This document shows, one piece after another, positions 18,758 to 38,570 of a DNA stretch of 64,000 nucleotides; the first letter of the stretch is position 1; each line of letters begins with the position of its first letter. The DNA is from Candidatus Kapaibacterium sp. (lineage in GTDB: Bacteria; Patescibacteriota; Patescibacteriia; UBA9934), in the NCBI GenBank assembly GCA_044350705.1, contig JBILHA010000002.1:178295-242294 (forward strand), given 5' to 3'. Made by a program: the position numbers and the translations under genes. Below the pieces are notes generated by a model, which was not told where the DNA came from, did no database searches, and saw only the letters and a program-made list of their open reading frames with translations.

Positions 18758-19213
18758 TTATACCTGAGGGGGAAGTTCATCGTCGCCCTTGTAGACACCG
18801 CCGGTATTTACGATGAGCGTGAGCTCCGAAAGACGGGAGGATTCAAGGGGTGCTTTTCTTAGTTTTTCAGGCGGCTTTTCTTCCTCCACCTTTTTTAAAT
18901 ACACGCGAAGATCCGTATCAGAGAGCGTTTTATCCCACACTCTTTTTGCGGGCTTTTTAATATACTGCAGGAGGTTGAGCACGATATAGTGCAGTGGCTG
19001 GCCATTTACTTTTCCAAAAGCAAACGCTCCTCCGAGTGCGGCGATCGGGATACCAACCGCGAGCATGGGAAGCAGGCTCAAGAAAATGCGGTAGACTAAA
19101 AACTCTGCCACGATTACCCCTACCATGATGAGAAATTGGCGAAGCGTAATCGGGCCAATGATTTTTGGCTCTACATCAAGAAATTGCGGAACGACAAACT
19201 GGGATCGCGACAT
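18758..19213 (-). CDS. PrgI-like (VirB3-like) small membrane protein
   Basis: 151 aa with the N-terminal motif ...VPQFLDVEPKIIGPITLRQF... followed by two TM helices. It lies immediately upstream of VirB4, as in Gram-positive T4SS loci. Confidence 0.5.
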   Translation of the reverse strand: MSRSQFVVPQFLDVEPKIIGPITLRQFLIMVGVIVAEFLVYRIFLSLLPMLAVGIPIAALGGAFAFGKVNGQPLHYIVLNLLQYIKKPAKRVWDKTLSDTDLRVYLKKVEEEKPPEKLRKAPLESSRLSELTLIVNTGGVYKGDDELPPQV

Positions 19214-19230
19214 GCAGGAAGTATAGCAGA

Positions 19231-20982: not shown

Positions 20983-20990
20983 ACGTTTGT

Positions 20991-23867
20991 CTAAGTCATG
21001 TATCTTTCAGCGGCATTGTACGAACTACGGAGTCCACGAAGGCGCTTTATCTCGTCCGCAGAACTTGCCGTCGTTTCATGCACGCGAAGTGCAGCGCCGA
21101 TGGTACTCATCGCATCTTTTATCGCTGCTTTTTTTCCTGCATCCGTTTCTTTTCTCATCATCTCCGCCAGCTTGTTGAAATCTTCCTTTGAAAGACCGTC
21201 CACAATCGTCTTTGAGAAGTCGTTTCTCGCACCTTTCACTACCGCATCGCGAATCGCATCCTGCATGTGCGCCACAGAAGAAGGGTCCGCTTTCATAAGT
21301 TGCTGCACCTTCATGCGCTCATCTCGTCCAATATTCATGGATGGGTTTGTTGCAGGATTTGTGTCAACGCCTGGAATAATATCGGGAATGGTTTTCCCTG
21401 CCCCCAGAAGCTTCTGACGAATTGCATTTGCATCATCAATACTAATTCTTCCTCCTGCAGCCTCCATTGCCGCGAGCTGTGCTTGGATTTGGCTTTGCGT
21501 TGCCGCATTCATTTTTGAGAAGTCTGCCTTCGATTGTGCGAGCGCCTGAATTGCTTTATCAGCGTTTGCATTTCTTGATGAATCGAACATGGCGTCATTC
21601 AGCTGTCCTTCGCTGACTTGGCCATTCTCAAACGCTCTGCCGATATTCTCTACACTCTGCGTCTGCATGACATTCGTCACAAACTGCTGCTGCACCGAAG
21701 CAGCAGTAACCCCCGGAGGTCGTCCTGCCTTTGCCGCAGCCTTTGCTTCAGCATCGATTTGTTCTTTTGCAAGATTACTTACATCTGTTTTTCCTTCAAT
21801 AATTGCCTGAATAACGCTTGCCTTGCCTACATCAGTCGTCGTTAAATGCGCAGACGCCTCTGTGGTCTTTGATCGACCATATGTTCCTCGATTCAATTCA
21901 TCGAGTTTACTGACCTTCTTTCCACTTTCATACTTTGATGTCGCTCGACCCATTGCGTTTAGAACAGTTTCATCAGCAGCAGCCTGTGAACGCAAAAGGC
22001 GTCCGTTGAAATCTTCTGAATCGATGAATTTTTCTGCCTTACTCTTATCTACCTTTGCATAGAGATCCGCATATTGTGATCGTGCCTTATTCCATGCTTC
22101 TTTATCTATTGGTCGGTCATGCTCATGTTTATCAAAGTCACTCAAGGTGCTCTGTACGATTTCATCAAACTTCTCTTTGCCCACCTCCTTTTCTAAGGCT
22201 TTTGCAAAATCCTTATTCGTAAATAATTCTCCCCGAAGCACCTTCGCATCGGCTAAAATGTCATTTGAAATAGCGCCCGTTCCTGTCGCGGACTTCATCA
22301 ATCGAGATACCCTTTGCGCATCGGTCATGTGTGAAACGCGATCCTTTGCTGCTTTTTTCTCCTTTTCATCAAAACCATGCAAACGTGCATCAATCGAAGA
22401 GCCCGCCGACAAGAGAAGATCTGAACCCGTCGCAGCTCCTGCGGCACTCACAATATTTCCTGCGCGTTTCGCAATTTTCTTACCTCCAATGAGCGAAGAT
22501 TCGAGAGGGCTTTCTGCCACCTGCAGTCCACGCGTAGCGACCCCAGCTGCTTTCTGCGTTAAGTTGCCCGTGCGTTGTAAGAAAGCGTTCAGCCGAGGGC
22601 TGCTCCCTGCGAACATATTGGACCTTCCCAACATTCCTCCCGCTTTTCCCGCCAATTGACTGCCAACTCTTGCCCCCGTAACAGGTAAAGCAAGGGCTCC
22701 TCCAGATATTTTCCTTCCCAGAGAAAGCGCGCGGCGACCGGTCTTTTCATTGAGCGCCATTGCGGCGAGGCCTCCCATTTTTGACGCGATTTTCGCCGAC
22801 TCACGGATACCCATGAGTAAGAAGACGATCGCAATAAGGAGACCGGTGAAGTTGGTGGATTCGAAAATTTCGAGCGTGATTTGTCCGTAGGTTGTACGTT
22901 CTTCTGGCTCTGGGAATGCCTCTGCCTTTGCGAGGTGACCGTTTGAAGATGCGGCAAGCGCCAAATACAAGAAAAATGCGAGCATCGGGCCAAGGATGAG
23001 CGGGGGGACAAATCCCTGCACCCATTCATTCCACACGCGACCCAACCACTTGATGATATCCATGGACCCCCAGGAGAATCCTGCGAAAGGCGCCATGATA
23101 AATGCAATCCAGAGCATGATGATGCGCCAGATGAACGCTACGGCAAGCAGCAAGATGACGATCATCACCGCTACCTGCACCATGAGTTTTACGTAGGCGT
23201 TTGCAATGTTCGATGCCAATGTCACCAGCGTAATTCCCGCCTCAGACGCTCCTTGAAAAGTCGCCGAAGAGTACGTGGTTGCTTGCGGCATGACCATGAG
23301 CTGCGCAAAGTTTCCGGCCGCAATACTCATGAGCGCGTTTACGAACGTCATCATGACGATTTGACTTGCGTCTACAGCAAGACCGCAGATGGTTCTACTA
23401 AAGTTTGCAAAAACGATACCTAAGAAGAATCGAGGAAGGTGTTGCTGCCAGGCGCTACTTCCCTGCCCAACCATCGTTTTTACCGCCAAAATCAAGAGCA
23501 CAATGACCGCAAACATGTTTACCATGTCGCGCGTGAGCGTCCATCCGAGTGTGACGATGCTTGAGCTTGAGAAATTGTTGTAACTGAGGACATTGACGAC
23601 GATCACCTCAATGATCACGAGCGTGAGCGAACCAATCGCATCACCGATGAAGTTGATAATCTGCGCGAGGACGTTTCCAATCCACATGACCAAGCTGTTC
23701 GCCCAGGTGGATTCCTCGGGAGTTTCATATGCGGCATGCGCGATATCTGGTACCACCGCATGCATAAGCATGCCCATGCCAACAAAAAGACCAAGCACAA
23801 GTGCCGTGGTCCCTACTTTACGGAACAACCGACGCATCCCTCCAAACATATGGGAATAGTGTAGCAC
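20991..23867 (-). CDS. Polytopic membrane protein with a long hydrophilic C-terminal extension; candidate VirB6/TcpH/PrgH-like T4SS channel component
   Basis: 958 aa with about 8 TM helices in the first ~400 aa, then a ~550-aa Ala/Lys-rich coiled-coil tail (TcpH-like architecture). The start is GTG at 23867 or ATG at 23849. Confidence 0.5.
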   Translation of the reverse strand: MLHYSHMFGGMRRLFRKVGTTALVLGLFVGMGMLMHAVVPDIAHAAYETPEESTWANSLVMWIGNVLAQIINFIGDAIGSLTLVIIEVIVVNVLSYNNFSSSSIVTLGWTLTRDMVNMFAVIVLLILAVKTMVGQGSSAWQQHLPRFFLGIVFANFSRTICGLAVDASQIVMMTFVNALMSIAAGNFAQLMVMPQATTYSSATFQGASEAGITLVTLASNIANAYVKLMVQVAVMIVILLLAVAFIWRIIMLWIAFIMAPFAGFSWGSMDIIKWLGRVWNEWVQGFVPPLILGPMLAFFLYLALAASSNGHLAKAEAFPEPEERTTYGQITLEIFESTNFTGLLIAIVFLLMGIRESAKIASKMGGLAAMALNEKTGRRALSLGRKISGGALALPVTGARVGSQLAGKAGGMLGRSNMFAGSSPRLNAFLQRTGNLTQKAAGVATRGLQVAESPLESSLIGGKKIAKRAGNIVSAAGAATGSDLLLSAGSSIDARLHGFDEKEKKAAKDRVSHMTDAQRVSRLMKSATGTGAISNDILADAKVLRGELFTNKDFAKALEKEVGKEKFDEIVQSTLSDFDKHEHDRPIDKEAWNKARSQYADLYAKVDKSKAEKFIDSEDFNGRLLRSQAAADETVLNAMGRATSKYESGKKVSKLDELNRGTYGRSKTTEASAHLTTTDVGKASVIQAIIEGKTDVSNLAKEQIDAEAKAAAKAGRPPGVTAASVQQQFVTNVMQTQSVENIGRAFENGQVSEGQLNDAMFDSSRNANADKAIQALAQSKADFSKMNAATQSQIQAQLAAMEAAGGRISIDDANAIRQKLLGAGKTIPDIIPGVDTNPATNPSMNIGRDERMKVQQLMKADPSSVAHMQDAIRDAVVKGARNDFSKTIVDGLSKEDFNKLAEMMRKETDAGKKAAIKDAMSTIGAALRVHETTASSADEIKRLRGLRSSYNAAERYMT

Positions 23868-24096
23868 AAATCCTTTGTGTCATTCCGACGACAGGAGGAA
23901 TCTCTTCCCTTTCATTCATTTACACTTCCCATGTTTGAAAGTAAGGGTTCTTCAACGCAATAAGCGCATATTTCTTTTGTCTTCTCCATTTCTTTAATTC
24001 TTTTTCTCGAGCAATGGCAGCGTGTACATTTGCGGTTGATTCAAAGTAGGGAATTTTTTATGAATGGATCTGAAGGAGATCGCTCCTACCGTCGGG

Positions 24097-24182
24097 ATGA
24101 CACCGGATCTCTTTCGGACTTTTGTATAAGATCCAACAATGACACCGGTTCTCTCTTCCACTTTTTTTGTACAAGACCCAAC
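24097..24182. repeat. Tandem imperfect direct repeat (2 x ~42-44 bp)
   Basis: ATGACACCGGATCTCTTTCGGACTTTTGTATAAGATCCAACA / ATGACACCGGTTCTCTCTTCCACTTTTTTTGTACAAGACCCAAC at about 80% identity. It sits in the 400-bp intergenic region upstream of the T4SS operon. Confidence 0.55.
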
Positions 24183-24215
24183 GTCGTCACTTCTCCCTGT
24201 GAGATACGCAAGACG

Positions 24216-24242
24216 CCTGGGAGAGCAGAACGCTCTCCCAGG
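24216..24242. terminator. Strong hairpin (11-bp perfect stem) downstream of the M23 peptidase gene
   Basis: CCTGGGAGAGC-AGAAC-GCTCTCCCAGG; weak flanking U-tract. Confidence 0.45.
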
Positions 24243-24273
24243 CGCACGATTCTTCTCTTTCGGACAAGAAGAA

Positions 24274-26022
24274 TTATTCCTCGATCACGACCCGCAGTCC
24301 GCAGCCACTTGACGTGGGATCATCGGCGGCGACCACCGACTGCGCATGTCCGTTCCAGGTTGCAGCTACCGTTCCCTGGATGGTTCCGGGCGGAAACGGC
24401 CCCAGGCAGGACCAGCTTGTCGTACCAGAGATGACGTACTCCACCGAAAAGCGGAGTGCGTCGCCCGGTTCCATGACGCGACGGTAGGTGAGGTGGGAGG
24501 TATCTGACCCCTCCGCAAGCACCCCCACCCAGCTCCGCGGATCACCACCCGCGGGGGTGAACTCCCCCGAGAGGGTGATGCGGCTTGCCGTCGCCGCATC
24601 TGGCGTTGTCCAGGTGAGCACGAGCTCCCTCTCTTCCTCGATGTCGGTCTCCGCCGGTGCTTCTTCTTCCTCTTCCCGCGTTTCTTCTTCCTCAGGCGGA
24701 TCACCCGCGCTCTCGTAGGCTCCTCCCCCAACCGCAGCACCGCCGCAGGTGGTGATCAGAGACTCGGTGAGGCAGGAGATGCCCGTCGCACAGCTCCCGC
24801 GCACGGTCACGATGCTCTCGAACTCGCTCCGCTCCACTTCGAGCACCGTTCTTTCCCAGAACCCCATGAGCAGATAGACGCTCCACGTCTCGATGGGCAT
24901 CGCAACACCATCGCTCATGAGGTACACGTCGCTTGCATCGGCCGGAGAGATGAGGCTTCCATCGCGGTAGCGCGCGTTGCCGCTGTGCACCGGATAGTCG
25001 CCAAGATCGTCGGAGAGATCGGACGCCTGGAGCAGGTCATCGTACGTCGCGGCGCTCATGCCCCACGACTTCACAACCCCCTGCCAGCCGAGCGTACCGA
25101 TCTTCTGTCTCGCACGATACTCATCGCCGCGCGTTCCCATGAGAAGCCACACGCCGGTTCCGCCTTCGTCGTCGTACACCGCGCGCACTGCGGACGCATC
25201 TCTCAGGCTCTCGCCTTCTTCGAAGCAGGAAAGCTCCTCGGGGGAGACGAGCGCAACATGCGCGAAGTCGTAATTGCGGGAGGTGAAGGCGCTCTCGGTC
25301 ACGAACACGCGCCTCTTCCCTTCTTCGATGAGGTACACCGCGCTCTCGAAGGGCGTCTTCACGAGCGTGCCGTTCGGGTGCCAGCGCGGCACAGGAAGGG
25401 ACGACTCGTACCGATGACCGGACGTGAGATCGCAGATCATGCTCGTTACCGGCGTTGCCTGTGCCGGCGTTCCCCGCGTGGCATTGCGCGCGAAGAACTC
25501 GAGCCCCTCCTGCGAGATTCCCTGGACGCCGTCGTCCGCTGCATCTCCCCAGTGACGGCCGATATGCAGATGGTCTCCCGTGGAGTTCCCCGTCGTCCCT
25601 TCGATTGCGATGATCTGGCCCGCCACCACTTCGCTCCCATCCTCCACAAAGATGTCGGACAGGTGCGCGAGGATGATATAGGTACCGTCACCGAGATCGA
25701 TGTTGATGTGCAGACCGAAGTTCGTCGTCGAATTGCGGTCGTGCACGTACGCCACGCCCGCGACCGGCGCGTACACCAGATCGTCGGCGTCGTTGGGGGT
25801 GTCGAAGTCCACGTCGTAGCGCGTTGCGGTTCCCCGGTGGGAGTAGCTCCCTCCGGTCCCCTGGCTGCAGCGGTAGCTCTCCCCTTCGGCGAAGGGCAGA
25901 TGAACCGTCACCGCGTCACGCCCTCCCCCGCCGATTCCGGTGTCTTCAGGAATGCTCAGCGGCGGCAGCGGCGAACAGCTACAGAAAAAAAGTACGAGGA
26001 GCGCACAAATAATGAAGGTCAT
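24274..26022 (-). CDS. Secreted/lipoprotein M23-family metallopeptidase with a large C-terminal domain; high-GC gene
   Basis: Signal MTFIICALLVLFFCSCS. The M23 motifs are HRGTATRYDVDF and GNSTGDHLHIG (G-x-STG-x-HLH). An acidic linker PPEEEETREEEEEAP is present. GC is about 65% versus about 45% in flanking genes. Confidence 0.75.
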   Translation of the reverse strand: MTFIICALLVLFFCSCSPLPPLSIPEDTGIGGGGRDAVTVHLPFAEGESYRCSQGTGGSYSHRGTATRYDVDFDTPNDADDLVYAPVAGVAYVHDRNSTTNFGLHINIDLGDGTYIILAHLSDIFVEDGSEVVAGQIIAIEGTTGNSTGDHLHIGRHWGDAADDGVQGISQEGLEFFARNATRGTPAQATPVTSMICDLTSGHRYESSLPVPRWHPNGTLVKTPFESAVYLIEEGKRRVFVTESAFTSRNYDFAHVALVSPEELSCFEEGESLRDASAVRAVYDDEGGTGVWLLMGTRGDEYRARQKIGTLGWQGVVKSWGMSAATYDDLLQASDLSDDLGDYPVHSGNARYRDGSLISPADASDVYLMSDGVAMPIETWSVYLLMGFWERTVLEVERSEFESIVTVRGSCATGISCLTESLITTCGGAAVGGGAYESAGDPPEEEETREEEEEAPAETDIEEERELVLTWTTPDAATASRITLSGEFTPAGGDPRSWVGVLAEGSDTSHLTYRRVMEPGDALRFSVEYVISGTTSWSCLGPFPPGTIQGTVAATWNGHAQSVVAADDPTSSGCGLRVVIEE

Positions 26023-26651
26023 GGGCCGACGTCTCCGGAGATGAAACGATGATTCGTTTCTTTTCCCCTTGCAGAGGGAGTCCCAAAGGAACTGCAAGGG
26101 AAACCGGAGCGCAGCATATGCCCTGGGGTAAGGACTCCCCTCCTTACCCCTTTATTTATTAAGTATGGAATGCTGTTTGCCCGGCTGTCGTTTTGAAAGC
26201 GCGTTTTTTGGTACCCGCTTTCAGGGCGATCAGGCGCGCGTTTGTCATTCCTGCAGACACTCACGAACGTTCCTTCAAGGTCGTGCCCGAACTCGTCGGT
26301 CGTTCTGCTTCCATATCACCATAAAAAAAGAAGTCTTCAAGTAAAAACCTTTAAAAACTCTTCTCTTTTTTGCGCGTTTTCGTTTCTGGTATCTTTTTTT
26401 CTTTTCATTGTCAGAAAACAATGAACAGCTTTTTCGCAAAACATCTCTTTGAAGCGATGCGTTGTCCCCTCTCCAAAAACACCGTGGGAAAAGCTGTCAG
26501 GAGTGCAAAAACTGTGGATAACCTACAAAAAACACGCCCCTTGCAATGGGCGTGTTTCCTCTCTCTTGAAGCTCGCGTATACGCCCCTCCTGGCCTCCCC
26601 GATGGGGAGGATCTCGGTGGAAACTCCCCTGACTCACCCGAGACGCTTTCA

Positions 26652-27320: not shown

Positions 27321-27455
27321 TAGCGCTGTCTAGGCATCTCCTGCGGCGCAAGCCGAGGTGAGAAGCCAAAACACGTACCTTAAACAACACCACCCCACCC
27401 ACCCGGTAAGTGCCGGGAAAGGTGTCGTGGGCAGTCCATGAGTAAGGAGAGCGCC

Positions 27456-28205
27456 ATGCGCATCTTGATTCTGGCCGCCCTGCTGGGCGGCTGCGGGGGA
27501 TCCTCCCCCGACCTCGCCAACGGCGAGGTCGGCAACGACGGCAACGACACCAACCCGGATGACAAGACCGGCAAGGCCACCCTGTCCTACACCGTCTCGG
27601 TGATGGGCAAGGTCGAGCCCTGCAAGATCAACATCGAGTGCGAAGACATCGACCTGCTGACGGTCTCCTCCGGAGAAATCGTCGAAGTCGATGTCCCCGC
27701 CTCGTGCGTGATCTCTGCGGGTCTCCTGGACTACACCGACATCTTCGGGTACCCCGTCCACCTGGGCGAAGATGGCGAGTACTGGGCGGCAACCCCGCTC
27801 ACGCTCGACCTCGAGCCCCAGGACGAAATCCTGGATCAGTTCATCACCTTCAACGTCTTCGAGCCCGGCTACTACGACTGCGAGTACGACAAGTACGAGC
27901 TGGATGAGTCCGCCGGAGATCTCAAGGGCGAGCAGTGGATGGAGGACCATCCGGTGGACGAGCAGTTCATCGAGGTCGGCCAGGACGGCATCGTCGAGAT
28001 CGAGGGCAACAACGAAACCCTCGATGTCGTCGGTGGACCCCAAAGCCACCTGCAGACGGTCGACGACGGTCTCGTCCTCGTGGTGGCTGGTGAGGAAATC
28101 CCCTACTACATCGCCGAGTCCGACATCGGCGTTGACAACTTCTCCCTCACGGTGGTCAACACCGAGTTGGGACATGTGTCCGACGTCCGGTGCGAGCTGG
28201 ACTAG
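27456..28205 (+). CDS. Acidic lipoprotein of unknown function; high-GC gene
   Basis: Lipoprotein signal MRILILAALLGGC (lipobox LGGC) and a strong SD AAGGAG 7 nt upstream. GC is about 65%. The antisense 355-aa ORF is an artefact of the high GC. Confidence 0.7.
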   Translation: MRILILAALLGGCGGSSPDLANGEVGNDGNDTNPDDKTGKATLSYTVSVMGKVEPCKINIECEDIDLLTVSSGEIVEVDVPASCVISAGLLDYTDIFGYPVHLGEDGEYWAATPLTLDLEPQDEILDQFITFNVFEPGYYDCEYDKYELDESAGDLKGEQWMEDHPVDEQFIEVGQDGIVEIEGNNETLDVVGGPQSHLQTVDDGLVLVVAGEEIPYYIAESDIGVDNFSLTVVNTELGHVSDVRCELD

Positions 28206-28410
28206 GCGTGGGTGGGGGTCGCGTACCCCCGGTTCCGCAGCAGCGGGGCCGGGGGTCGCATCTTTTTTTGGGGAAGTAAGGAGTGAAAGGAAGGGTGAAC
28301 TTTTTATACTATTTCGTGTGGGAACGTTGGATTCCGGGTCCCCTCGGAGACCTCGGGGCAATGCAAGTCCGGAATGACAGAGCTCCAATCGGAACACCTA
28401 TCTCTAAATC

Positions 28411-28439: not shown

Positions 28440-31400
28440 TTACGGAGTTACCGTGATGACTCCATCGTACTCCACCCAAGGATTTATCGAGGAGTTTTGT
28501 TCTGGGTAAATTCCGTATGAACACTCGCTGTAATCCATTGTACTGGACGCATTGGCATCGTTGTACATTCCCACAAAGCATCCGCCTGGACTTGTCGTTC
28601 CATAGCTTGAAGTGCTTGATTCGATTGCGTTTCCATCCGTACATGTTCCCGTACACCAGCCCCAGTTGTCGCGGACGTGGACGCGGGGACGGAAGACGCA
28701 GGAATCTGCGGCATCGTCACCGGTTTCGTCGATCGCACAAGGGAACTCGTCGTATTCGCCGTCGCCATCGGTATCATCACAGCGGTCGCCACGAAGTACT
28801 TCTGATGTACAGGTATAGACGTGGTTGTAGTTGAAGTAGTACGGATCGCAGCTTTCATCGGTAAGACCCCATTCAGAATCAAGGTCACATTTTGATTCTT
28901 GCTGGCCGTCCTGCAAACCACGAGCGTTCTTGAAGTAGTTCTCGTCGTCATCTGATCCGGTTTGCATTCCGTCTCCCCAGTCAATCATGACCTGACGGAT
29001 AGGAAGCTGGTTCTTGTCTGCGGCCGCGTAGAACTTAATCGTCGCATTGAAGAACTGAATTCCGGATTGATCACCTGTTTCTTGACCGTTGAGGGTAATC
29101 GCACTCTGCGTTCCTTCTTCACACATAAGGCCGTCACTTGAACACGAACCGACATCGACCGCCCATACCGTTGGCGGAACTCCTTCTGCCGGACGGACGT
29201 CGTACGCTTCATCATCTGCATCATAGTCTGCCCATAGACTCGTCTCCGTAGGAAGAACGGAGAAATAATCTCCTACATCTTCCCAATCACCATCTATATA
29301 TTCTCGTTCACCTGTAAAGTCACCCTTCCAGATCCATAGGGCAGCATCTGCTACCGAAGCGAATACTTGCGTAATTGATTCAAGCGAGTACTGCAGTGGC
29401 TCTGAAGTCGCCGTATAGAAGTAGTATGAGGATGTATCTGATACGTATGCGTACGGATGTCCATCCCATCCATATCCCACACCGTCCCAGCTTCCTGTAA
29501 AGGTGAATGGAATATATGAGCGTGCTTGTAACAGCTCAGATGCAGGATCACCTAAGGTTCCTACGTCAGGATATCCGCTTGGGCACGAATCAAATGTAAC
29601 TCCCGTCGCAATCGTAATGTCGTCTCCTCCGTGATAGTTATCTGAGCACTGCGCTACATAGAATGGCGCTTCGTATTCCTGAACCGGCTTATCGAGATTG
29701 ATAGCGCCAAATATGCCTGGGGTTGTTTCTTGATTGTATTCAACATTGGAAGACAGGTCTGACTGCAGCGTATGTCCATTGTAAACACGATCCGTCCATG
29801 CATACGATCCTTCGTCATCAGATGAAACCTGCACTACTACAGAACATGCAATATTTTCATCCATAGCATCATGGAATCTGTCTGCATAGATTTCAGGAGC
29901 GTTCATCCAAAGATTTCGGTATCCGGTTCCTCCCGATGAGGACTCCGTATCGTCTGCACCGTCGCTTTGTGGATAGTCCGTAATATCTAGCACGTCATAG
30001 AAAATATCCGCCTCTGCGTATTCTCCTCCACGCATGTAAATACCGCGTACTTTACAGTCCTGATAATCATCTGCAACCGTGTCGAAATGACCGTAGGTTC
30101 TCTCCTCTGAATCGCTACTTCCGCTGCTCGTATCTCCTCCTCCTTCTTTTGGATTGAGCGATGCATACCAGACACGCGTTCCGTCATTACTCGTACCTTC
30201 ATTGGATATTCGACTATCTTCGCTTGGGTCACAAGACTCATAGTCGTACTCCACTTCCCCATCGCTTTCTACATATTTCGCAGAGTTCTCAGGAACGCAT
30301 ATATACGGACAGTCATTATCTCCCACGCCATCCCTACACGTATCAGCTGAGTAGTTATTACTCACTCCCGCACCACGGGCACGTGCTCCCATGATCGCAA
30401 AGAATCCCTCCGGGCAATGCACCGCCTGATCACAGGCCGCATCACTCGTGCTCCACGCATCCTCATCGTTACCCACACTACTATCATCACTCTCCGCACA
30501 TGCAACACCCTCCGTATATCCATCTTGAATTACGCTGCTTGGCGAAGGGGTGATCGTTGAGAATGCCTGTACGTCTGCACACATGTAAATATCTTCGAAG
30601 AATCCCGCGCTTGCGTACTTTGCCTGCAAGTCTGTATCTCCCTGTAGGCGGTCAACCGGCAACCAAGAGATACACGCCTGCTTTGTACGGTCGCCAAGGA
30701 TATTGAGCGACGTATCTTTCTCGAGACAGAAGCCATTCAAGCCGTAGATTACGTCTTCTCGGGTGGACTTTGCACAGGTCGATCCATCTCCACACTGCTC
30801 GTCTTCCGTGCAGTATCCTCCTGAACGCTCTCCACCCTGACATACACCCAATTGATCAGCTACCGCAATACAGGATCCGGATTCGCATGTGCTTCCATCA
30901 GTACATATTTCCCCTGCATCCGTATCCGCCTCTTCCTCACCATCTCCATCAAGATCACCTCCACAAATCGAGAATTCTGGATCCCAATCTTGGTTGTAGT
31001 ATCTCGTTTCCATCCCTTCTCCGAAGCTCACCTTGGTGTACGAACAGTCACATACTTCCCCATATGCACACGCTTCAACGTTCTCAAATCCCGAGAGAAG
31101 ATCGTAGGGCAATGCATCATACGTAGGATCGGTGTCAATCGTTCCTTGATCCGAAGGGTCATACCACGCTTCAACAACTTCATTTGGGAATGGACTCGTT
31201 CCCTCTGGGTATGCGCGACAAATCTTTCCTTCAGTAACGCCGTTTGCGTACGTTTCACCATCAGGCGTCAGCAAACACTTGCTATTGATACATGATCCGA
31301 GTTTGAGTTCGGCAGCGGGAATGAAGGTTTCTGCAGAGCTACAGGTGCTCGCTTCTGCGGTTTCACTATCGTAGTCTTCGATCGCCACGTCATTACCTAC

Positions 31401-34400
31401 TTCTGCACACGTACCGCTGTAACACGTTTGACCTTCTGAACAATCAGCTGCGGTCTGACAGAGTACCGGATTTCCACTGGCATCTTCGTCGAGGTCGTAA
31501 CATGCGCCAACAATACAGTCACCATCGCCGCATTGGTCGCTTGAAGCACATGCGGCACCGTTTGACGAGCAGTACCCCACTGCACACGCATTGCCATAAT
31601 CTTCCGAACAGCTTCCGGCATCAAGAACGAGCGCGTAGTCAACCTCATCAATGAGTCCTGCGGCTTCCGTCGCCTCTGGAGACATACAAATACCCGAACC
31701 CGCCATACATGCCTCTCCCACGGCTTCACACGAGGAGTCGCTGGCAAGCGAGGGGGAAGCTGTACTCGCACCATATACACAATATGCAATCGGGCTTACA
31801 TCAGCTTGACTCAGCGACTGCACGGGGAATAAATCAGGAATCGCCATGCCCGAGTATTCATTTCCATACCAAGAGGTATCGCGTGAGGCATACCACTCCT
31901 TATCAAAGAGCACATCTGGCTCTTCCATGTCCCACTCTGCGCAGGAGGAAGTTCCGGTTGTTGCATCGTAGTCGGTACAGAGCTCGATATCGGTACACGT
32001 GTTGATGAAGCTTGCGGTATCTTCGTCCCAACGTGGGTTATCGCTTGCACAGGCAAGCCATTCTGAACATGCACGGTCGCGATTTACTTTCAATACCGTG
32101 TTTACATCATTTTCTTGGCGAGGCACCCAATCGAAGTTTGCATTGAGTTCATCTTCCATCCATGCGCTAAATCCAAGCGATCCAAAAAGTCCTGGATCAA
32201 CACGTACCTGGGTTCCACACGTTACCGCTTCAACACTTCGTCCAGATTCACTTTCAACCAATGCACAGTCCGTAGAATCTACACAGGAGCCACCGAATAC
32301 GAAGAGGTCATCTCGATCGTAATCCCCCCCAAACGAGAGTTCGCTTGCGAGCTTTGCTCGATAGGTATCTCCATCGGTTAAATCGTATACCTCCCCGTAG
32401 TCATAAATACAGCGCGTAGCACAGAGGTCAATTTCAAGACCATCCGACGTGGTAATCGTTGTATCTCCCCCATTCTCACAATCGATAGGATCGACCAACC
32501 CGTATGGCTCGGTACCAAACAATTCATCAGCATGACGACTCGATACTTCCGTTGCAGAAGCATTTGCCGTAAGTGAGGTGCTGGACGTGTCATAGAACAT
32601 GGCACACCCGTTCTTGAGCGACACTTGTCCATCACACTTTTGACTATCCGAAAGGCCGTATTCACTTAGGGTGTCGTTGTTGAGATAGAAATAAGATGTT
32701 CCGTCGCTCATGCCGTAAATCTCCCCATCATCTTGCGCGAGGGTGTCCTGGAATTCGCTACAGGTGTCATAGGTTGCGTCACATGTTCCTGCCCAGCCGC
32801 CAAATCCAGCATCTCCGTTCTTCCAAATACCAGACTCATCCCCTCCAATGACATACGAAGGATTCTGCGCATTACAAGTCTCCCCCGATCCACAATCCGC
32901 GCTACTTCCACATGCATCTCCTTCATTTCCCCCGGAATCTTCACACGTTCCGTAACAGAAGTCCTGCGTTCCTTCGCGGAACCATCCGGTGTATCCCACC
33001 CCGTCTATCGTGACATCCGTGCGGTATTCACACTTTTGATCAAGCGGGTGCTTAAAGTAATACGTTGCCGCCTGGTTGGTTGTGAACGCATCACAGAAAA
33101 GCTCTTCATGGGCGCAGAGCGTGCTGTCGTATTCATCTGGAAGATTTAAGAAGTACACACTTTCTGCACCGTCCGTACTATTACGATCTTGATTCCAGTC
33201 TGGATCACCGAATTCTGTACATCCTGCAGCGGAAGCAGAGCACGTTACCTCGTCGGTCACCACCAAGAACATTGCCTGGTCTGCAGGCACGATGGTTGTT
33301 TCCGGTCCATACGAAACGGCAGTTTCGCCAAGTCCCCAAGCAGGCGTGAAGCCATCCATTGAGAAGAGACAGGAAGATTCACCTACCGCAATCGTACAAA
33401 GGTATGGCGAAGCCTCGTCGAAATCTGCCGAGGATTCATAGAAGTAATAACACGCGGTTGCCGATGTTGCAGTATCCGGCTCACTGTCTCCATCGTCGTC
33501 GATATTGTTACAGGTTGCGTTCACAGTTTTTGCCGTGTGACTTGCGCTTTCCTGGGTCTTGAAGAAGGCGTCGCATCCTACTTTGTCTTCATCACAGAGT
33601 GAGCTAAAGCTCTTGAGATACTCAGTCTCATCGTCTTGCGTCGTGTATTCCTGACAACCCAAGTAATACTGCGGGCTTGCATCTCCCGTGACCGATTGAT
33701 CGCACGACGCAGGGGTTACCCAAGAATCTCGGATCACCGTGATATTCTCCTCACCCTCTCGGAGAACGATATTGTCGACATATGCCGAACCCGTAGGCAC
33801 GAGCACAAGCGACGTACCCTCACCAAAACGTGGGTAATCCTCCGCATCCATGACGAGCGGTCCGAGAGTAATTTGCTGCCATCCGTCTTCAAGCTCTACT
33901 GCGCTATCAAATGCGAGATCAATAGAAGGAGATGAAGGATCTGCCTCAAAGTCAAAGCCTACCTCAAGCGTACCCGTTCCCTTTGCGACCACACTTACCG
34001 TGTAGGTTTTTCCGGCAAAGAGTTCGTTATGCAGCGTTCCGCAATAGCCATCATTCTCCGCTATCGTACATTCTCCACCAAAACTGAGCGCCGTACCCGC
34101 ACATCCTCCTTCGGTCGTACAGGTTCCCCCGTTATCTGCGATAAAGGAAGTGACCGGTCCGGTCATGAGCATGGAGTGCCCATCAGAAGCAAGTGATTCG
34201 TTACTGTAGGTCGCATATGAAGCTGATGCCGCATCCCATTGATTGAGCGTTCCGCTTTCAAAGATTTCTTCGAGCACTAAACGACTATTTCTGCTTCGAC
34301 CTCCTGCGTATGCACGACAACCGTTTGCCGAGGCATCACACGAGGTACTTTCTTCTGGGTAGCCGTAATAGCGACACTCTCCCGAGTCTCCCACGTAGTA

Positions 34401-37400
34401 TCCTCCTGAATCTTCACAAGTGATCTGTTGCGCTGCCGCTGTCTCCCCTGCGACTTCCGTCTTTCGGTATGCCTGACAGGAATTATGAATCGTCACGGTT
34501 TTTGTCCATTCTCGGTAATGAATGTTTCCGCTTTCGTCGTAGAATTCTCGACAATCTGCGTTCGTAAAGATATCTGCACGGGAGTTACAGTCTTCCGTAT
34601 CCCAATCGTAATAGCCGTCTCCATCATCATCAGCGGAGTCATTACAAGTAATGCCGTCATCGGTCGCGGTCCAGTTACTACAAGGCGCCAAGTTAGGAGC
34701 GGTATCGGTTACCCCATCGGTTCCTGTGTGCGTATAGCTTGAAGAACCGAGATCTGACTCCAAGAGCGTCCAGGTTTGCAGCTGATATCCGTCTTCATCT
34801 GATCCCTCCCAGGTGTAATATGTCGCTTCTGTTCCTGCAGCTTGTGTTTCAGTGACACATGCACGCAAGAAGCTGTAGTACTCCTGCTCTTCTGTTGCGA
34901 GGTTGGTAAATTCGTCACATCCCACTTCTTCAGCGGAACACTCAGTTGCGGTATCAGGAATGAAGTACACCGCATCTATTCCATCAGGTTCATAGAGCGT
35001 TGCCTCTTGGCGATAGGTGTCGTATCCCGCACACTCCGAAGGACAGCTATCTAACTCCGTTGCAATACCTGAAAGCGCAGGATCGCCGTTTGTTGGGGTG
35101 TACATCGTACATCCCATGTCTTGCTCGGAGCACACCTGTGCGTAGTTTGCACATTCCGCAGGATCATCTTCGCTTCCAGTACATCCAAGATATGCAGGCG
35201 CAACCTTTGCGACTACGGTCGTGTAGTCGGTGTCGCTATATCCATTTACTGGAGTAGACGTATCTTCCCCTTGTTCGAGCTGCATGCTATCAACATAGCC
35301 ATCGAATGCGAGAACGTATAAATCACCGAATACGCGCAATGACGGCTCTGGCAGAGGCGGAACGGTAAAGGTACAGCTAAAACGCTCATACGACGTTCCT
35401 TCCGGCTGCATGTTTTCAATTCCTACCCCGTCGGTTCTTGTTGCGCCAAAAATATCTACGTAGCTATCGTCACAATCTCCAATAATTGCCAGTCCTTCAA
35501 TATCAATGCCCGCTCCTTCTTCATCTTTCAATGCTAATCCTACGCTTACCGTATCGGTACCTGCATCGGTTGCTTGGCGCGCATAAAATGAAAGCGTGTA
35601 GGTACTTGCTTGCGTTAATTCAATACCAGGCTGATAGAGCGCTCCACGCCCACCGGATCCTGGAGAAATCGCCACCTCTCCCTCTCTTGCAACACTGCCA
35701 TCCAAAGAAACGGTTGAAGGCCATGAGGTTCCTGCAAGGTGATAATCAAACCAGCCGTCTGGACGGTCATCGCTGTCGTCATCCTCTTCAAAACTTGGGT
35801 TCAATACGACATTGAGGCGAAGATCGGTGTCGCGTTCGATCAGCGTGGAACATCCTCCTTCTTCTTCATCGCAATCTTCGATCTGACTATTGAAGTAGAT
35901 ACGAGATGCGTATGTTTCGCTGTCTGCATCCGCGCCTGCAATATCATCAATTGCCGCAAAAGCAAATGTTCCGTCATCTTGTTGCTCTTTTACCGTGTTA
36001 TACCAGCGACATCCTACGGTGTCCGAAGTACAAGGTCCGGGATCAACGGTATTCTTTAACAGCGCGATATCATCCCCCGCTGAATCTTCAAACACCAAAC
36101 AAGAAGCCGCGTATTCTGGACAGCTCTCTCCGCGGAATTGCCACGTATTTTCTTCTGCCACACAGTAGCCGTATCCTCCAATACAGTTTCCATTTTCATC
36201 CTCTGCGATACAGCTTGGCATATCCACACACACCTGTGCGCGTTCATCTGCCTCCTTGGTCAGCAAAAGTTCTCCATACGCCTGCATGCGGCACTGGGTA
36301 TCCGGGTACTTCAGCACCCAATCCGGATCGATCATTTTGCACCAGGGATGGTTATCATCCGGAAGGCCATCTGGACCGCAGGAGTTAAATCCGTTGATTA
36401 CCTCCTGAAGGGTAACCGGGCTTTCTGCAGAATTTGCTGAGGAATTTGCCGCAAGTTCCCATCCGATAGAAATTACGCGTGCTTTTCGAAGCTTTACCAA
36501 GTTTCCATAACAGAATCCATACGTGTAACAGAAAGCATCCTGGTTGCGAGCCGCGTCAGAGGAAGGAATGAGCGGCCAATCCCCATTCATAAGACCGTCA
36601 TCGATCGCTTCTTCAATGGTTAGGGGCGCCCCAGACTCTGCTCGTGCAATTGCTGATACAAAATTTGAATCCGCTACACAGTTATATAGTCCGCGCGTTG
36701 ATGAACCTGGGCAGGTAATAAACTCCGACAGAATACTGTAGTTCGTAATCTGCAACGGCGCTGCAGTGAGCAATGAGCGATACCGATCTGCCGCTGCCTG
36801 CTGCGTTCCGAGCGCAAAACTCTCAGGATCAAACGGATCAACCTGCGTCACGTCAAAATCAAAGAGCCCCATCCAAATGCGCTCCTGGAGCTTTGAAAGC
36901 AGGGTATTCGTAAATACACTTGCTGCATGTATTCCCACCTGTCTAATCAGGTCTTTATTTCCCAGCATGGCGAATGTTGCCTGCTGACGTACATCTCCAC
37001 TGTTTTTCTGCGCATCTTTTACCTGCGTTGAAAGGATATCAGCCGGAGTTTCTACATTTCCCGTAATAAAATCTACAATATCCTTAAATCCTCCATCATT
37101 GAGCTTTTTCTGTACACCGATCAGGGGAAGAAAAGTCGTTTCTCCAAAGACATCGGTATACACCCCAAGTCCCGCGCCAAACTCTGCCTTTTGGGGATCG
37201 TACATGTTGGCAAGTTCCGCAAGGACGAGCTGGTTTTTAAAAGGCGCTTTGTATCCCTCTAAATCTGCAATAAATGCCTGCCAAGTTCCTTCTGGACCAA
37301 ACATTTTGTTAAAGTCACATTTTGGCTCTGGACGATCGAAGACCCCCTTAATACCCAACTTGAACTGCAGCAAAATGTACGGGGTTGAAGGCGCACAAAG

Positions 37401-37808
37401 ATCAAAATTCGAGAGAAGCCCCCCTGCGCCTTCTATCGTTTCAGATAGAGATCCGATCGCTTCACCAGCAGCGCCCATTGCAAGCTCCTTCAGATACTCG
37501 CCATCAGGGGTGCCGTCAAAGAGCGGCTCTTCTGCCGAGCCTCCGGTTACAATGCGAACCGCCGCATCGTAGGCCAAGCGGTCAGCTGCAAATGAAACGG
37601 CATTCACCAATGCGGTCACAATTGCGGCCTGCATGGTGTTCGTTATGAAATCCGTCACTGCATTTTTAATCCACTCTAAGACACGAGGGGCGTCCGCTAC
37701 CGTGGAGTTTTGTGCGTACGCGATACGAGCCCCTGCTATCGGCGTTGCAATAAAAAATATCACCATCCATGCCGCAAAAAGCTTTTTCGCAAAACCGTTG
37801 AAATTCAT
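28440..37808 (-). CDS. Giant secreted protein (3122 aa), Cys- and Asp/Gly-rich, with thrombospondin type-3-like Ca-binding motifs; probable surface adhesin
   Basis: Uninterrupted 9.4-kb ORF with signal peptide MNFNGFAKKLFAAWMVIFFIATPIAGARIAYAQ. It contains several hundred Cys residues and DxDxDGxxD motifs (DDDGDGYYDWD, NIDDDGDSEPD, DTDGDGEYDE, DLDGDGEEEAD). No TM segment follows the signal. Confidence 0.85.
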   Translation of the reverse strand: MNFNGFAKKLFAAWMVIFFIATPIAGARIAYAQNSTVADAPRVLEWIKNAVTDFITNTMQAAIVTALVNAVSFAADRLAYDAAVRIVTGGSAEEPLFDGTPDGEYLKELAMGAAGEAIGSLSETIEGAGGLLSNFDLCAPSTPYILLQFKLGIKGVFDRPEPKCDFNKMFGPEGTWQAFIADLEGYKAPFKNQLVLAELANMYDPQKAEFGAGLGVYTDVFGETTFLPLIGVQKKLNDGGFKDIVDFITGNVETPADILSTQVKDAQKNSGDVRQQATFAMLGNKDLIRQVGIHAASVFTNTLLSKLQERIWMGLFDFDVTQVDPFDPESFALGTQQAAADRYRSLLTAAPLQITNYSILSEFITCPGSSTRGLYNCVADSNFVSAIARAESGAPLTIEEAIDDGLMNGDWPLIPSSDAARNQDAFCYTYGFCYGNLVKLRKARVISIGWELAANSSANSAESPVTLQEVINGFNSCGPDGLPDDNHPWCKMIDPDWVLKYPDTQCRMQAYGELLLTKEADERAQVCVDMPSCIAEDENGNCIGGYGYCVAEENTWQFRGESCPEYAASCLVFEDSAGDDIALLKNTVDPGPCTSDTVGCRWYNTVKEQQDDGTFAFAAIDDIAGADADSETYASRIYFNSQIEDCDEEEGGCSTLIERDTDLRLNVVLNPSFEEDDDSDDRPDGWFDYHLAGTSWPSTVSLDGSVAREGEVAISPGSGGRGALYQPGIELTQASTYTLSFYARQATDAGTDTVSVGLALKDEEGAGIDIEGLAIIGDCDDSYVDIFGATRTDGVGIENMQPEGTSYERFSCTFTVPPLPEPSLRVFGDLYVLAFDGYVDSMQLEQGEDTSTPVNGYSDTDYTTVVAKVAPAYLGCTGSEDDPAECANYAQVCSEQDMGCTMYTPTNGDPALSGIATELDSCPSECAGYDTYRQEATLYEPDGIDAVYFIPDTATECSAEEVGCDEFTNLATEEQEYYSFLRACVTETQAAGTEATYYTWEGSDEDGYQLQTWTLLESDLGSSSYTHTGTDGVTDTAPNLAPCSNWTATDDGITCNDSADDDGDGYYDWDTEDCNSRADIFTNADCREFYDESGNIHYREWTKTVTIHNSCQAYRKTEVAGETAAAQQITCEDSGGYYVGDSGECRYYGYPEESTSCDASANGCRAYAGGRSRNSRLVLEEIFESGTLNQWDAASASYATYSNESLASDGHSMLMTGPVTSFIADNGGTCTTEGGCAGTALSFGGECTIAENDGYCGTLHNELFAGKTYTVSVVAKGTGTLEVGFDFEADPSSPSIDLAFDSAVELEDGWQQITLGPLVMDAEDYPRFGEGTSLVLVPTGSAYVDNIVLREGEENITVIRDSWVTPASCDQSVTGDASPQYYLGCQEYTTQDDETEYLKSFSSLCDEDKVGCDAFFKTQESASHTAKTVNATCNNIDDDGDSEPDTATSATACYYFYESSADFDEASPYLCTIAVGESSCLFSMDGFTPAWGLGETAVSYGPETTIVPADQAMFLVVTDEVTCSASAAGCTEFGDPDWNQDRNSTDGAESVYFLNLPDEYDSTLCAHEELFCDAFTTNQAATYYFKHPLDQKCEYRTDVTIDGVGYTGWFREGTQDFCYGTCEDSGGNEGDACGSSADCGSGETCNAQNPSYVIGGDESGIWKNGDAGFGGWAGTCDATYDTCSEFQDTLAQDDGEIYGMSDGTSYFYLNNDTLSEYGLSDSQKCDGQVSLKNGCAMFYDTSSTSLTANASATEVSSRHADELFGTEPYGLVDPIDCENGGDTTITTSDGLEIDLCATRCIYDYGEVYDLTDGDTYRAKLASELSFGGDYDRDDLFVFGGSCVDSTDCALVESESGRSVEAVTCGTQVRVDPGLFGSLGFSAWMEDELNANFDWVPRQENDVNTVLKVNRDRACSEWLACASDNPRWDEDTASFINTCTDIELCTDYDATTGTSSCAEWDMEEPDVLFDKEWYASRDTSWYGNEYSGMAIPDLFPVQSLSQADVSPIAYCVYGASTASPSLASDSSCEAVGEACMAGSGICMSPEATEAAGLIDEVDYALVLDAGSCSEDYGNACAVGYCSSNGAACASSDQCGDGDCIVGACYDLDEDASGNPVLCQTAADCSEGQTCYSGTCAEVGNDVAIEDYDSETAEASTCSSAETFIPAAELKLGSCINSKCLLTPDGETYANGVTEGKICRAYPEGTSPFPNEVVEAWYDPSDQGTIDTDPTYDALPYDLLSGFENVEACAYGEVCDCSYTKVSFGEGMETRYYNQDWDPEFSICGGDLDGDGEEEADTDAGEICTDGSTCESGSCIAVADQLGVCQGGERSGGYCTEDEQCGDGSTCAKSTREDVIYGLNGFCLEKDTSLNILGDRTKQACISWLPVDRLQGDTDLQAKYASAGFFEDIYMCADVQAFSTITPSPSSVIQDGYTEGVACAESDDSSVGNDEDAWSTSDAACDQAVHCPEGFFAIMGARARGAGVSNNYSADTCRDGVGDNDCPYICVPENSAKYVESDGEVEYDYESCDPSEDSRISNEGTSNDGTRVWYASLNPKEGGGDTSSGSSDSEERTYGHFDTVADDYQDCKVRGIYMRGGEYAEADIFYDVLDITDYPQSDGADDTESSSGGTGYRNLWMNAPEIYADRFHDAMDENIACSVVVQVSSDDEGSYAWTDRVYNGHTLQSDLSSNVEYNQETTPGIFGAINLDKPVQEYEAPFYVAQCSDNYHGGDDITIATGVTFDSCPSGYPDVGTLGDPASELLQARSYIPFTFTGSWDGVGYGWDGHPYAYVSDTSSYYFYTATSEPLQYSLESITQVFASVADAALWIWKGDFTGEREYIDGDWEDVGDYFSVLPTETSLWADYDADDEAYDVRPAEGVPPTVWAVDVGSCSSDGLMCEEGTQSAITLNGQETGDQSGIQFFNATIKFYAAADKNQLPIRQVMIDWGDGMQTGSDDDENYFKNARGLQDGQQESKCDLDSEWGLTDESCDPYYFNYNHVYTCTSEVLRGDRCDDTDGDGEYDEFPCAIDETGDDAADSCVFRPRVHVRDNWGWCTGTCTDGNAIESSTSSYGTTSPGGCFVGMYNDANASSTMDYSECSYGIYPEQNSSINPWVEYDGVITVTP

Positions 37809-37823
37809 ACCTATACAGGATCA

Positions 37824-38570
37824 TTAGGGTGTGGTCACCGTTGTATTTTCTTCTCCTCCTGCTTCCACCTCCTCTCCTTCTTCTTGGTCAAGCTCTGTTA
37901 CCGCCTGTCCTAATGCCTCTTGATACAGCTGCATGACCTGCTCATCTGAGAGACTTGCCAGTACGTCCTGTTCAAGGCCTGAGTCTGCCAGGAGTGCGCG
38001 CACCTCCTCTACGGAAAGCTGCTGTAGTACTCCTACCGCATCTTCTACGGTGGGCACTTCAGCGCTTGGCGCTTCGGGAGCCTGCGCCTCTAAGAAGGCG
38101 GCGGTTGCTCCTGCCTGAATGGTTTCCGAGGTCACACAGGTTTTTCCCATTGCACAGTTCGGATCTCCTCCTGCTGCAATTTCCGCACCATCCGTTCTCC
38201 CATCGGAATCGCTGTCCGCGATATAGGGACTCGTTGCAAAGATGCGCAATTCATCGTAGTCAGAAATCCCATCGTTATCCGTGTCTGAAAGACGCTGCAT
38301 GGCTACTTGTTCACTTTCTTTCTCTGCGGATGTTACGTACCGAGGACCGGTATATGAAATGAGGAAAGGCTTTTTTACATTACTGAAGAAATGTAAGCCT
38401 CCAAAAATTACTGCCCCTACTCCACACGCAGCAATAAAACCAAAAGCCACGCGTTCTTCGCGTGATAATGATTTTTTTGACCGCTCAAGCAGTAAGCGTG
38501 CTCCGTTTTCTTCGGGCACTTCCCTCATATGCACGTCAAAGTATAACAAATGACGCACCCAAGTATTCAC
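37824..38570 (-). CDS. Membrane-anchored protein with two thrombospondin type-3-like (DxDxDG) motifs, encoded directly upstream of and co-oriented with the giant gene
   Basis: One TM (VAFGFIAACGVGAVIFGGLHFF), then DTDNDGISDYDE and DSDSDGRTDGAE, then an acidic tail. The alternative start MREVPEENG is at 38528. Confidence 0.55.
   Translation of the reverse strand: MNTWVRHLLYFDVHMREVPEENGARLLLERSKKSLSREERVAFGFIAACGVGAVIFGGLHFFSNVKKPFLISYTGPRYVTSAEKESEQVAMQRLSDTDNDGISDYDELRIFATSPYIADSDSDGRTDGAEIAAGGDPNCAMGKTCVTSETIQAGATAAFLEAQAPEAPSAEVPTVEDAVGVLQQLSVEEVRALLADSGLEQDVLASLSDEQVMQLYQEALGQAVTELDQEEGEEVEAGGEENTTVTTP

Follow-up and report, generated by a model that had tools for sequence, protein, structure and literature searches.

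The window analysed here, a stretch of 64,000 nucleotides (nt) on contig JBILHA010000002.1, carries on its reverse strand a gene for a giant exported protein of 3122 amino acids (aa), which makes up 14.6% of the window. Directly upstream on the same strand lies a gene for a small membrane protein, and a convergent gene for a lipoprotein lies downstream. The giant gene, the parts of its product and the upstream gene are as follows.

28440..37808, minus strand: giant gene; ATG start, uninterrupted open reading frame (ORF), 3122 aa, 132 cysteines (Cys)
37713..37808, minus strand: Sec-type signal peptide, aa 1-32; predicted cleavage between AYA and Q
36714..37709, minus strand: N-terminal, nearly Cys-free domain, aa 34-365; only conserved pair C138/C164; long alpha-helices predicted at low confidence
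35814..36713, minus strand: most conserved Cys-rich region, aa 366-665, with the first C-x6-C hairpins
35229..35813, minus strand: first jelly roll of carbohydrate-binding module (CBM) 4/9 type, aa 666-860; Pfam CBM_4_9
33759..34271, minus strand: second, CBM4/9-like jelly roll, aa ~1180-1350; PDB profile match and hhalign
30579..33758, minus strand: Cys-rich core, aa 1351-2410; recurrent hairpins and small 4-Cys modules
29223..30578, minus strand: hypervariable domain (HVD), aa 2411-2862; Cys scaffold kept, sequence replaced between close strains
28443..29222, minus strand: C-terminal immunoglobulin (Ig)-like beta-sandwich, aa 2863-3122; disulfide-rich inserts and a variable tail at aa ~3055-3110
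37824..38528, minus strand: small bitopic membrane protein, 234 aa with Met15 as start; a GTG at 38570 starts the mechanical ORF

The giant protein is very acidic (10.4% D and 7.4% E; 557 D+E versus 144 K+R). A hydropathy scan of its N-terminus shows a KK n-region and a hydrophobic core at residues 10-27 ahead of the cleavage site, and an equivalent hydrophobic region is found in 105 of 111 full-length homologues. Beyond the signal the same scan detected no segment resembling a transmembrane (TM) helix in the giant, and only 2 of the 111 homologues have a borderline later segment. Neither an LPXTG motif (searched as LP.[TSA][GAN]) nor a C-terminal TM segment is present anywhere in the giant, a motif scan returned 0 GGxGxD (RTX) and 0 YD motifs and no PEP-CTERM signal, and Pfam scans of the giant and 15 homologues found no SLH, LysM or other anchoring or lattice domain of surface layer (S-layer) proteins. 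In comparison with a 96%-identical allele at the homologous locus L075, nonsynonymous divergence (dN) is 0.018 and synonymous divergence (dS) is 0.197. The resulting dN/dS of 0.09 argues that the gene is functional and under strong purifying selection, and is not a pseudogene. An earlier note on this DNA, made from the letters alone, had described a single ORF of 3122 aa filling about 15% of the window, with a Sec signal and no membrane anchor, and these points all stand.

More than 120 full-length relatives, 2900-3400 aa long and 34-96% identical, came out of a word-indexed search. They are unnamed or "hypothetical", and their organism labels, where given, are Patescibacteria or Candidatus Uhrbacteria. 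The organism of the window likewise belongs to Patescibacteria, that is, the candidate phyla radiation (CPR), as the earlier note had supposed in ascribing the DNA to an episymbiotic CPR bacterium. Among GTDB species representatives 335 stretches encode a relative, and the best 72 distinct loci of these 335 are from Uhrbacteria or Patescibacteria metagenome-assembled genomes. When a HMMER profile of the N-terminal 650 residues was run against 1.84 billion cluster representatives (50% identity) at E <= 1e-30, at least 1195 clusters at 50% identity were matched, and the top matches are all 2500-3670 aa long or clear contig-end fragments. Divergent members, at 26-33% identity, preserve the order of the regions from N- to C-terminus; tile searches for fragment homologues returned 19 N-terminal but only 2 C-terminal ones. 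No relatives were found among IMG/VR viral contigs, and a viral origin of the giant was rejected on this ground. Literature searches found no description of the family. The comparisons indicate that this is a length-conserved, single-copy, orthologous family and no repeat-expanded adhesin, and its distribution seems to cover all of Uhrbacteria.

The most constant feature of the family is its Cys framework. In a 59-sequence alignment, scored as identity to the query, mean identity reaches 0.94 for Cys, whereas Trp has 0.62 and most other residues 0.3-0.5, and 119 of the 132 Cys are at least 90% conserved. Non-conserved Cys are gained or lost four at a time (1622/1633/1639/1645 and 2282/2302/2308/2313), as if each block were an optional mini-module with two disulfides. 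The spacing C-x6-C occurs 16 times where 5.5-6.5 are expected, a number reached in 0 of 2000 shuffles, and a hairpin-like motif, C-x5/6-(G)C-x2-[YF], is repeated about 12 times. Since 119 of its Cys are so well conserved, we predict that the giant holds about 60 or more structural disulfides. Elsewhere in the window two adjoining genes encode proteins of disulfide formation.

52958-53692, plus strand: DsbA-like thioredoxin, 244 aa (Thioredoxin_4, 91 bits; DSBA, 60 bits)
53702-54172, plus strand: VKOR, 156 aa (75.5 bits), adjoining the DsbA-like gene

DsbA and VKOR form an extracytoplasmic disulfide-forming pair, and a dsbA gene is also found near the giant orthologue of a divergent lineage, L078. 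Exported, rich in conserved Cys and accompanied by DsbA and VKOR, the giant has the features of a disulfide-bonded extracytoplasmic protein, the bonds themselves being predicted. The DsbA-VKOR pair also fits a proteome with heavily disulfide-bonded exported proteins.

Two properties that the earlier note had given the giant need revision. Its "several hundred cysteines" are 132 (4.2%), although the conservation of Cys that it proposed as a check was found. Its description of the protein as rich in calcium-binding motifs does not hold. The giant contains three DxDxDG motifs against 0.33 expected by shuffling (p ~0.005), but there are 0 matches to the full consensus DxDxDGxxDxxD. One of the three motifs lies inside an optional insert that is present in 9% of homologues, and the per-position conservation of the other two is 20-80%. 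No match to a Pfam thrombospondin type-3 (TSP3) profile was found in seven tiles of the giant at E values up to 10, and none in 15 homologues.

Motifs of this type are better developed in the small upstream protein. It has one TM helix with the N-terminus inside, a DPNC..C pair, an acidic helical C-terminal tail and two TSP3-type loops, DTDNDGISDYDE and DSDSDGRTDGAE, that are invariant in three orthologues. Its matches to TSP3_bac (PF18884) score 24.3-24.6 bits against a cut-off of 25; the L078 orthologue has a precomputed, unmarked Pfam TSP3 match (E <= 1e-5), and there are weak NCBIfam matches to the TSP3 regions of CglD and MtsD. The loops resemble those of bacterial TSP3 proteins such as OmpA-like proteins and CglD/MtsD of Myxococcus, with the form DxDxDGxxDxxE, but in the small protein there are no more than two repeats, neither OmpA nor any other domain accompanies them, and the giant has no TSP3 match at all. 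Translation probably starts at Met15 (38528), as called in two public records. The bitopic, co-oriented protein with two DxDxDG loops that had been placed at 37824..38570 is therefore real, with a somewhat later start. Its stop codon is 15 nt before the giant ATG, and the gene stands immediately 5' of the giant gene on the same strand in 65 of 66 loci. This near-invariant pairing supports the suggestion that the two proteins are partners. The sharing of motifs between them, which had also been put forward, is weak because the giant's own DxDxDG motifs are few and poorly conserved.

Along the giant, recognisable domains are sparse. The N-terminal domain (aa 34-365) has no Pfam or PDB match. The conserved region that follows contains an invariant polar and basic cluster (Q423, D424, N436, K439, R441, R444 and E451). 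The segment aa 423-451 (window ~36456-36542; QD…N..K.RK.R…GWE.AA) holds this cluster inside an otherwise extremely acidic protein, and could be a ligand- or partner-binding site. CBM_4_9 (PF02018) matches aa 666-765 with 40.2 bits (E 5e-10, cut-off 25.9), and it exceeds the cut-off in 15 of 15 homologues scanned. Comparison of a family profile with PDB sequences placed another CBM4-like module around aa 1260-1345 (1gui, CBM4-2, E 0.008). Each module is followed by a Cys hairpin, and the two units match each other by hhalign (730-903 with 1262-1415, probability 85-89%) and, in part, by blastp within the giant (838-900 with 1343-1412, E 2e-5), which suggests that a unit of CBM and hairpin was duplicated once, anciently. 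The Cys-rich core includes optional modules at aa 1622-1645 and aa 2282-2313, and some of the 4-Cys mini-modules are mutually related. Apart from these and the single duplication, internal repeats of high identity are absent, in agreement with the earlier note. Searches of the seven tiles (E up to 10) and of 15 members against Pfam gave only CBM_4_9 and a stray DUF7107 in one member; the only NCBIfam match of the giant, to a "GTA spike fiber" jelly roll, is sub-threshold and overlaps the first CBM.

Structure prediction with AlphaFold2 (AF2) drew on alignments of only 26-27 sequences, and confidence is low over most of the giant for this reason. The model of aa 34-665 (26 sequences) has a mean predicted local distance difference test score (pLDDT) of 50 and is confident only for aa 373-503 (pLDDT 70-86); compared with the PDB by Foldseek, it gave only insignificant helical-bundle matches (E at least 2). 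The model of aa 2340-3122 has a pLDDT of 65 and a predicted template modelling score of 0.62. Within it the C-terminal beta-sandwich is confident (aa ~2869-3059 and 3089-3122, pLDDT 80-94), with generic Ig-like or E-set sandwiches as its only Foldseek matches in PDB and BFVD (E 0.1-1), among them NPC2, RhoGDI, a GH3 FnIII-like domain, BcpA and PKD-containing phage proteins. A PKD-like C-terminus, prompted by a DWGDG motif seen by eye, received no Pfam support, and the domain was kept as a generic Ig-like sandwich. The tile-by-tile survey of domains and structure that the earlier note had recommended thus yielded CBM_4_9 and a confident C-terminal sandwich, while leaving most of the giant unmatched and modelled at low confidence.

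A sharp break in conservation lies toward the C-terminus. Relative to locus L077, whose nucleotide background is 95-98% identical, aa 450-2390 are 96-100% identical and aa 2394-2861 only 14-48%. In this segment dS is saturated, compared with 0.1-0.3 in the flanks, and the gene around it is otherwise 91-95% identical. Whether the gene is aligned at the nucleotide level with L077 or with locus L003, which is much more distant, the alignment breaks at the same positions of the window, 30562/30579 and 29220/29224. The shared breakpoints indicate that aa 2411-2862 is a discrete hypervariable domain. The pattern extends to the whole family: pairs with 80-88% identity in the core have 28-38% in the HVD, and divergence of the N-terminal and C-terminal domains tracks that of the core while the HVD is decoupled from it. 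Because dS is saturated inside a nearly identical gene, the divergence of the HVD indicates that alleles were imported by recombination, and not merely fast point substitution. No silent cassettes and no template repeat of the kind used by diversity-generating retroelements (DGR) were found for the HVD in the 64-kb window.

Both ends of the giant gene also prove to be mosaic in these alignments. A second divergent tract in the comparison with L077, window 36465-37964, has 63-80% nucleotide identity on the 95-98% background and takes in the 3' end of the small gene (~45 codons) together with the signal peptide and N-terminal domain of the giant. At the other end, 19.2 kb are collinear with L075 at 95% up to window position 28647; beyond it the last ~65 giant codons and the lipoprotein gene represent a different allele from that of L075, closer to the distant L003. 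The tail at aa ~3055-3110 is 30-41% identical to its counterpart in a strain with 95% nucleotide identity.

A fixed scaffold carrying a discrete, recombining segment of decoupled divergence recalls the tips of phage tail fibres and the variable regions of pilins. It differs from these in that no viral structural match (best E 0.1), no IMG/VR relatives and, in the window, no silent cassettes or DGR template were found. Since the HVD recombines in the manner of receptor-binding proteins, an adhesin gains support as the function of the giant.

The features downstream of the giant gene are the following.

27438..28205, plus strand: convergent gene for an acidic lipoprotein of 255 aa; signal and lipobox LLGGC
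28225..28256, no strand: GC-rich hairpin with a 14-bp stem between the convergent stop codons; from a consensus scan only
16126..26097, minus strand: cluster resembling a type IV secretion system (T4SS) of Gram-positive (MPF-FATA-like) type; from library matches, topology and position

In 49 of 50 loci a convergent ORF of 125-300 aa comes after the giant gene, in most cases with a lipobox. The lipoprotein evolves fast: tblastn detects it in 9 loci, and the convergent ORFs fall into two homology clusters, with 24 and 13 of 51 members. Two mechanical ORFs in this region, 27330-28397 (minus) and 26370-27323 (plus), were rejected as spurious, being antisense or of low complexity; the real gene is that at 27438-28205. 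In a public gene call for L075 an antisense ORF (317 aa) is annotated at the lipoprotein site, and this too looks spurious. The hairpin is likely to be a bidirectional terminator, as predicted from its sequence. Rank correlations between the lipoprotein and either the HVD or the tail are weak (0.03-0.21), with most pairs saturated, and co-evolution was not apparent from them.

That the HVD, and likewise the C-terminal tail with the adjoining, fast-evolving lipoprotein gene, are replaced like cassettes also brings to mind a polymorphic toxin or secreted enzyme, in which the giant would be a delivery scaffold for a swappable effector and the lipoprotein its immunity protein or partner. We regard this as very improbable. 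The Cys scaffold of the HVD is 83-100% conserved, which argues for one fold with variable surfaces and not for unrelated toxin domains, and the HVD is internal, with a conserved domain after it. No toxin, Rhs/YD, peptidase or nuclease family and none of contact-dependent inhibition (CDI) was matched at E values up to 10. From Rhs/YD or CDI toxins the giant differs further in its 0 YD motifs. The lipoprotein is convergent and exported, unlike the products of typical immunity genes, and its divergence does not follow that of the HVD (Spearman 0.03).

The T4SS-like cluster comprises genes for an M23 peptidase (607-aa ORF), a 958-aa polytopic protein, a 583-aa soluble protein, PrgI/VirB3 (151 aa), a TraC-like protein (233 aa, an assignment taken from the orthologue at locus L001) and a VirB4/TraG-P-loop ATPase (640 aa). 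The 958-aa protein (~7 TM) has no Pfam match and is VirB6-like by topology and position only. Genes for a 190-aa TM protein and a ComF-like phosphoribosyltransferase (14903-15577) follow the cluster, and neither a relaxase nor a coupling protein was found among the window ORFs scanned. The cluster matches the T4SS described for Patescibacteria, which is MPF-FATA-like and relaxase-less and in which "no adhesins, such as PrgB, were detected" (PMC12102498). Read from Met26, the N-terminus of the M23 product looks like a signal or lipobox, and the product has a long C-terminal extension that is non-catalytic; a G+C peak of 0.61 at window 24001-26000 (window ~0.49) coincides with its gene.

These genes invite the reading that the giant is the extracellular arm of the Patescibacteria T4SS-like machine, a "missing" adhesin analogous to PrgB that brings the channel to the host. 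In 33 of the 41 loci with enough flank, the M23 gene is found 1.2-9.5 kb downstream of the giant and on its strand; the orthologues are 34-65% identical. At L078, where a 26%-identical giant of 2545 aa has a different upstream context and still the order ksgA, TSP3 protein, giant, a T4SS_pilin gene lies near this divergent member. The published survey found neither a PrgB-type adhesin nor a relaxase in Patescibacteria T4SS loci (PMC12102498). Like PrgB-type adhesins of MPF-FATA systems, the giant is a large, putative surface protein encoded near PrgI/VirB4-type genes of a monoderm, and it could provide contact with a target cell. It differs from them in having no PrgB or antigen I/II-type domain in Pfam or NCBIfam and in its position outside the T4SS operon, beyond a variable spacer. 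The terminator-like hairpin, the convergent gene and 1-10 kb of variable spacer intervene, so that the arrangement is not operonic, and 8 of the 41 loci, L079 included, have no T4SS gene (M23) within 9-10 kb. The giant is moreover Sec-dependent and no T4SS substrate. The upstream housekeeping genes are equally syntenic, the order being groES-groEL ... prfB, epimerase(s), ksgA, small TSP3 gene, giant among the same orthologues, and for this reason the linkage of giant and T4SS may be plain conserved gene order. We consider a T4SS arm a less probable alternative.

We propose, with a probability of about one half, that the giant is a Sec-exported, disulfide-braced surface fibre or adhesin in which a variable C-proximal domain would recognise a partner cell. 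The features of its export signal, the conservation of its Cys, its domains, its gene partners, the purifying selection on it and its mosaic hypervariability are all established. A very acidic protein of ~330 kDa would be exported by Sec and folded oxidatively, with about 60 or more disulfides, probably formed by the nearby-encoded DsbA and VKOR, giving an elongated multi-domain surface structure. Its Cys-poor helical N-terminal domain would be kept at the cell by the co-transcribed bitopic TSP3 protein, a predicted calcium binder. The shaft would be the disulfide-stapled core with its two CBM4/9 lectin-type jelly rolls, and the HVD and Ig-like end domain would make up a distal binding face that recognises a surface glycan or protein on the partner or host cell and is diversified by recombinational cassette replacement between lineages. 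Surface retention, orientation, ligand binding, host contact and cooperation with the T4SS are parts of this scheme that we infer.

The scheme is compatible with the secreted host-attachment adhesin that the earlier note had envisaged for a CPR bacterium. The reasons given there (hundreds of Cys, many TSP3 loops, motifs shared with the small protein) were wrong or overstated; an export signal, an acidic and Cys-rich composition, two CBM4/9 modules, an Ig-like end and a recombining HVD now speak for an adhesin. The architecture of the giant is not that of a classical fibrillar adhesin, because there are no tandem stalk repeats and no known anchor.

Several results weigh against an adhesin of this kind. 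About 90% of the giant appears to be without a recognisable relative, as Pfam tiles, AF2 and Foldseek gave nothing further; neither modelled part has a significant fold match by Foldseek, and most of the protein was modelled at low AF2 confidence (pLDDT 50 and 65). None of the recognised anchoring modules (LPXTG, SLH, LysM, RTX) is found in the giant, and the shaft is without the tandem Ig-like repeats typical of fibrillar adhesins. The CBM_4_9 modules are generic jelly rolls for which sugar binding is only predicted. Finally, hypervariability would suit the evasion of phages or predators by an envelope protein equally well.

This last point leads to an envelope or S-layer-type structural protein in which the HVD would be an exposed face escaping phages or predators and no host binder. 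The gene is a universal, single-copy, strongly syntenic core gene, its giant product is secreted and very acidic with conserved "inner" parts and a variable exposed part, and the membrane partner and lipoprotein could tether such a layer. A length of 3100 aa, ~60 disulfides and lectin-type modules are, though, atypical of known S-layer proteins, and in the Pfam scans SLH and other S-layer anchoring or lattice domains are absent. We consider a structural layer protein a less probable, minority alternative. The T4SS arm overlaps the best explanation, so that the confidences attached to these readings are not additive.

Compared with fibrillar and giant adhesins, whether Gram-positive LPXTG proteins or the RTX adhesins LapA and MpIBP, the giant is similarly very large, secreted and acidic, with CBM and Ig-like modules and a variable putative binding region near one end, and calcium-type TSP3 loops occur in its partner protein. 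It is unlike them in having no tandem stalk repeats, no LPXTG/sortase signal, no RTX repeats and no type I secretion signal, and its rigidity would stem from ~60 disulfides and not from calcium-loaded bacterial Ig-like repeats. The giants reported from Omnitrophota (bioRxiv 10.1101/2023.11.21.568195) and Giant1-5 of Apilactobacillus kunkeei (PMC12863079) are also longer than 3000 aa, occupy ~1% of a small genome, are predicted to be extracellular and are encoded near a secretion or pilus-type machine. No homology to them was detected, and they are reported to be far larger and/or repeat-based, whereas the present family is length-conserved, single-copy, non-repetitive and Cys-rich.

What appears to be new here is the size of the family and its lineage-wide conservation, the predicted ~60-disulfide framework with DsbA-VKOR, the three-gene module and the bounded, recombining HVD. 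A non-repetitive extracellular protein of 3100 aa braced by ~60 conserved disulfides, as predicted, would be an unusual bacterial design. The gene is costly, at ~1% of a ~1 Mb genome, yet it is conserved and single-copy. To our knowledge, host recognition and attachment by ultra-small CPR bacteria are largely unexplained beyond a few cultivated Saccharibacteria, in which the evidence points to type IV pili and a T4SS-like system. An HVD swapped between near-identical strains is a concrete and testable candidate for host specificity: its alleles lend themselves to typing in metagenomes and to correlation with the hosts found alongside, and probes could be made by expressing the CBM and HVD modules. 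A more far-reaching and decidedly speculative proposal is that the three genes (TSP3 membrane protein, giant and variable lipoprotein) form a lineage-specific host-contact organelle, the long-sought adhesin arm of the relaxase-less Patescibacteria T4SS, with the HVD setting host range. If that were true, the HVD would be a molecular barcode of who parasitises whom among uncultivated Uhrbacteria.

Some further observations concern the flanks of the locus. The variable spacer between the lipoprotein and M23 genes holds a 122-aa ORF (window 26652-27020, minus strand) that by eye resembles a DUF559/Vsr-like endonuclease (…GIGPFIVDFCFWPLRLVIEIDG…); no other convincing ORF was seen in window 26100-27400. 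At L077, from an 83%-identical strain whose neighbourhood is otherwise collinear, an ISL3-family transposase (3313-4038, minus strand) is inserted between groEL and prfB, and at L079 a Y1 transposase lies directly 3' of the giant gene; the flanks of the locus therefore harbour mobile elements. At L078, the genes for the T4SS_pilin (VirB2-like, PF18895) and DsbA, at 2663-3475 and 3531-4214 (both minus strand), lie a few kb upstream of ksgA. Farther away in the window, at 7381-10338 on the plus strand, genes for FMN_bind, ApbE and a fusion of an RnfD/NQR2-like protein to a FAD/NAD-binding reductase make up what looks like a small flavin-based redox module of the membrane, an unusual find in a reduced CPR genome.

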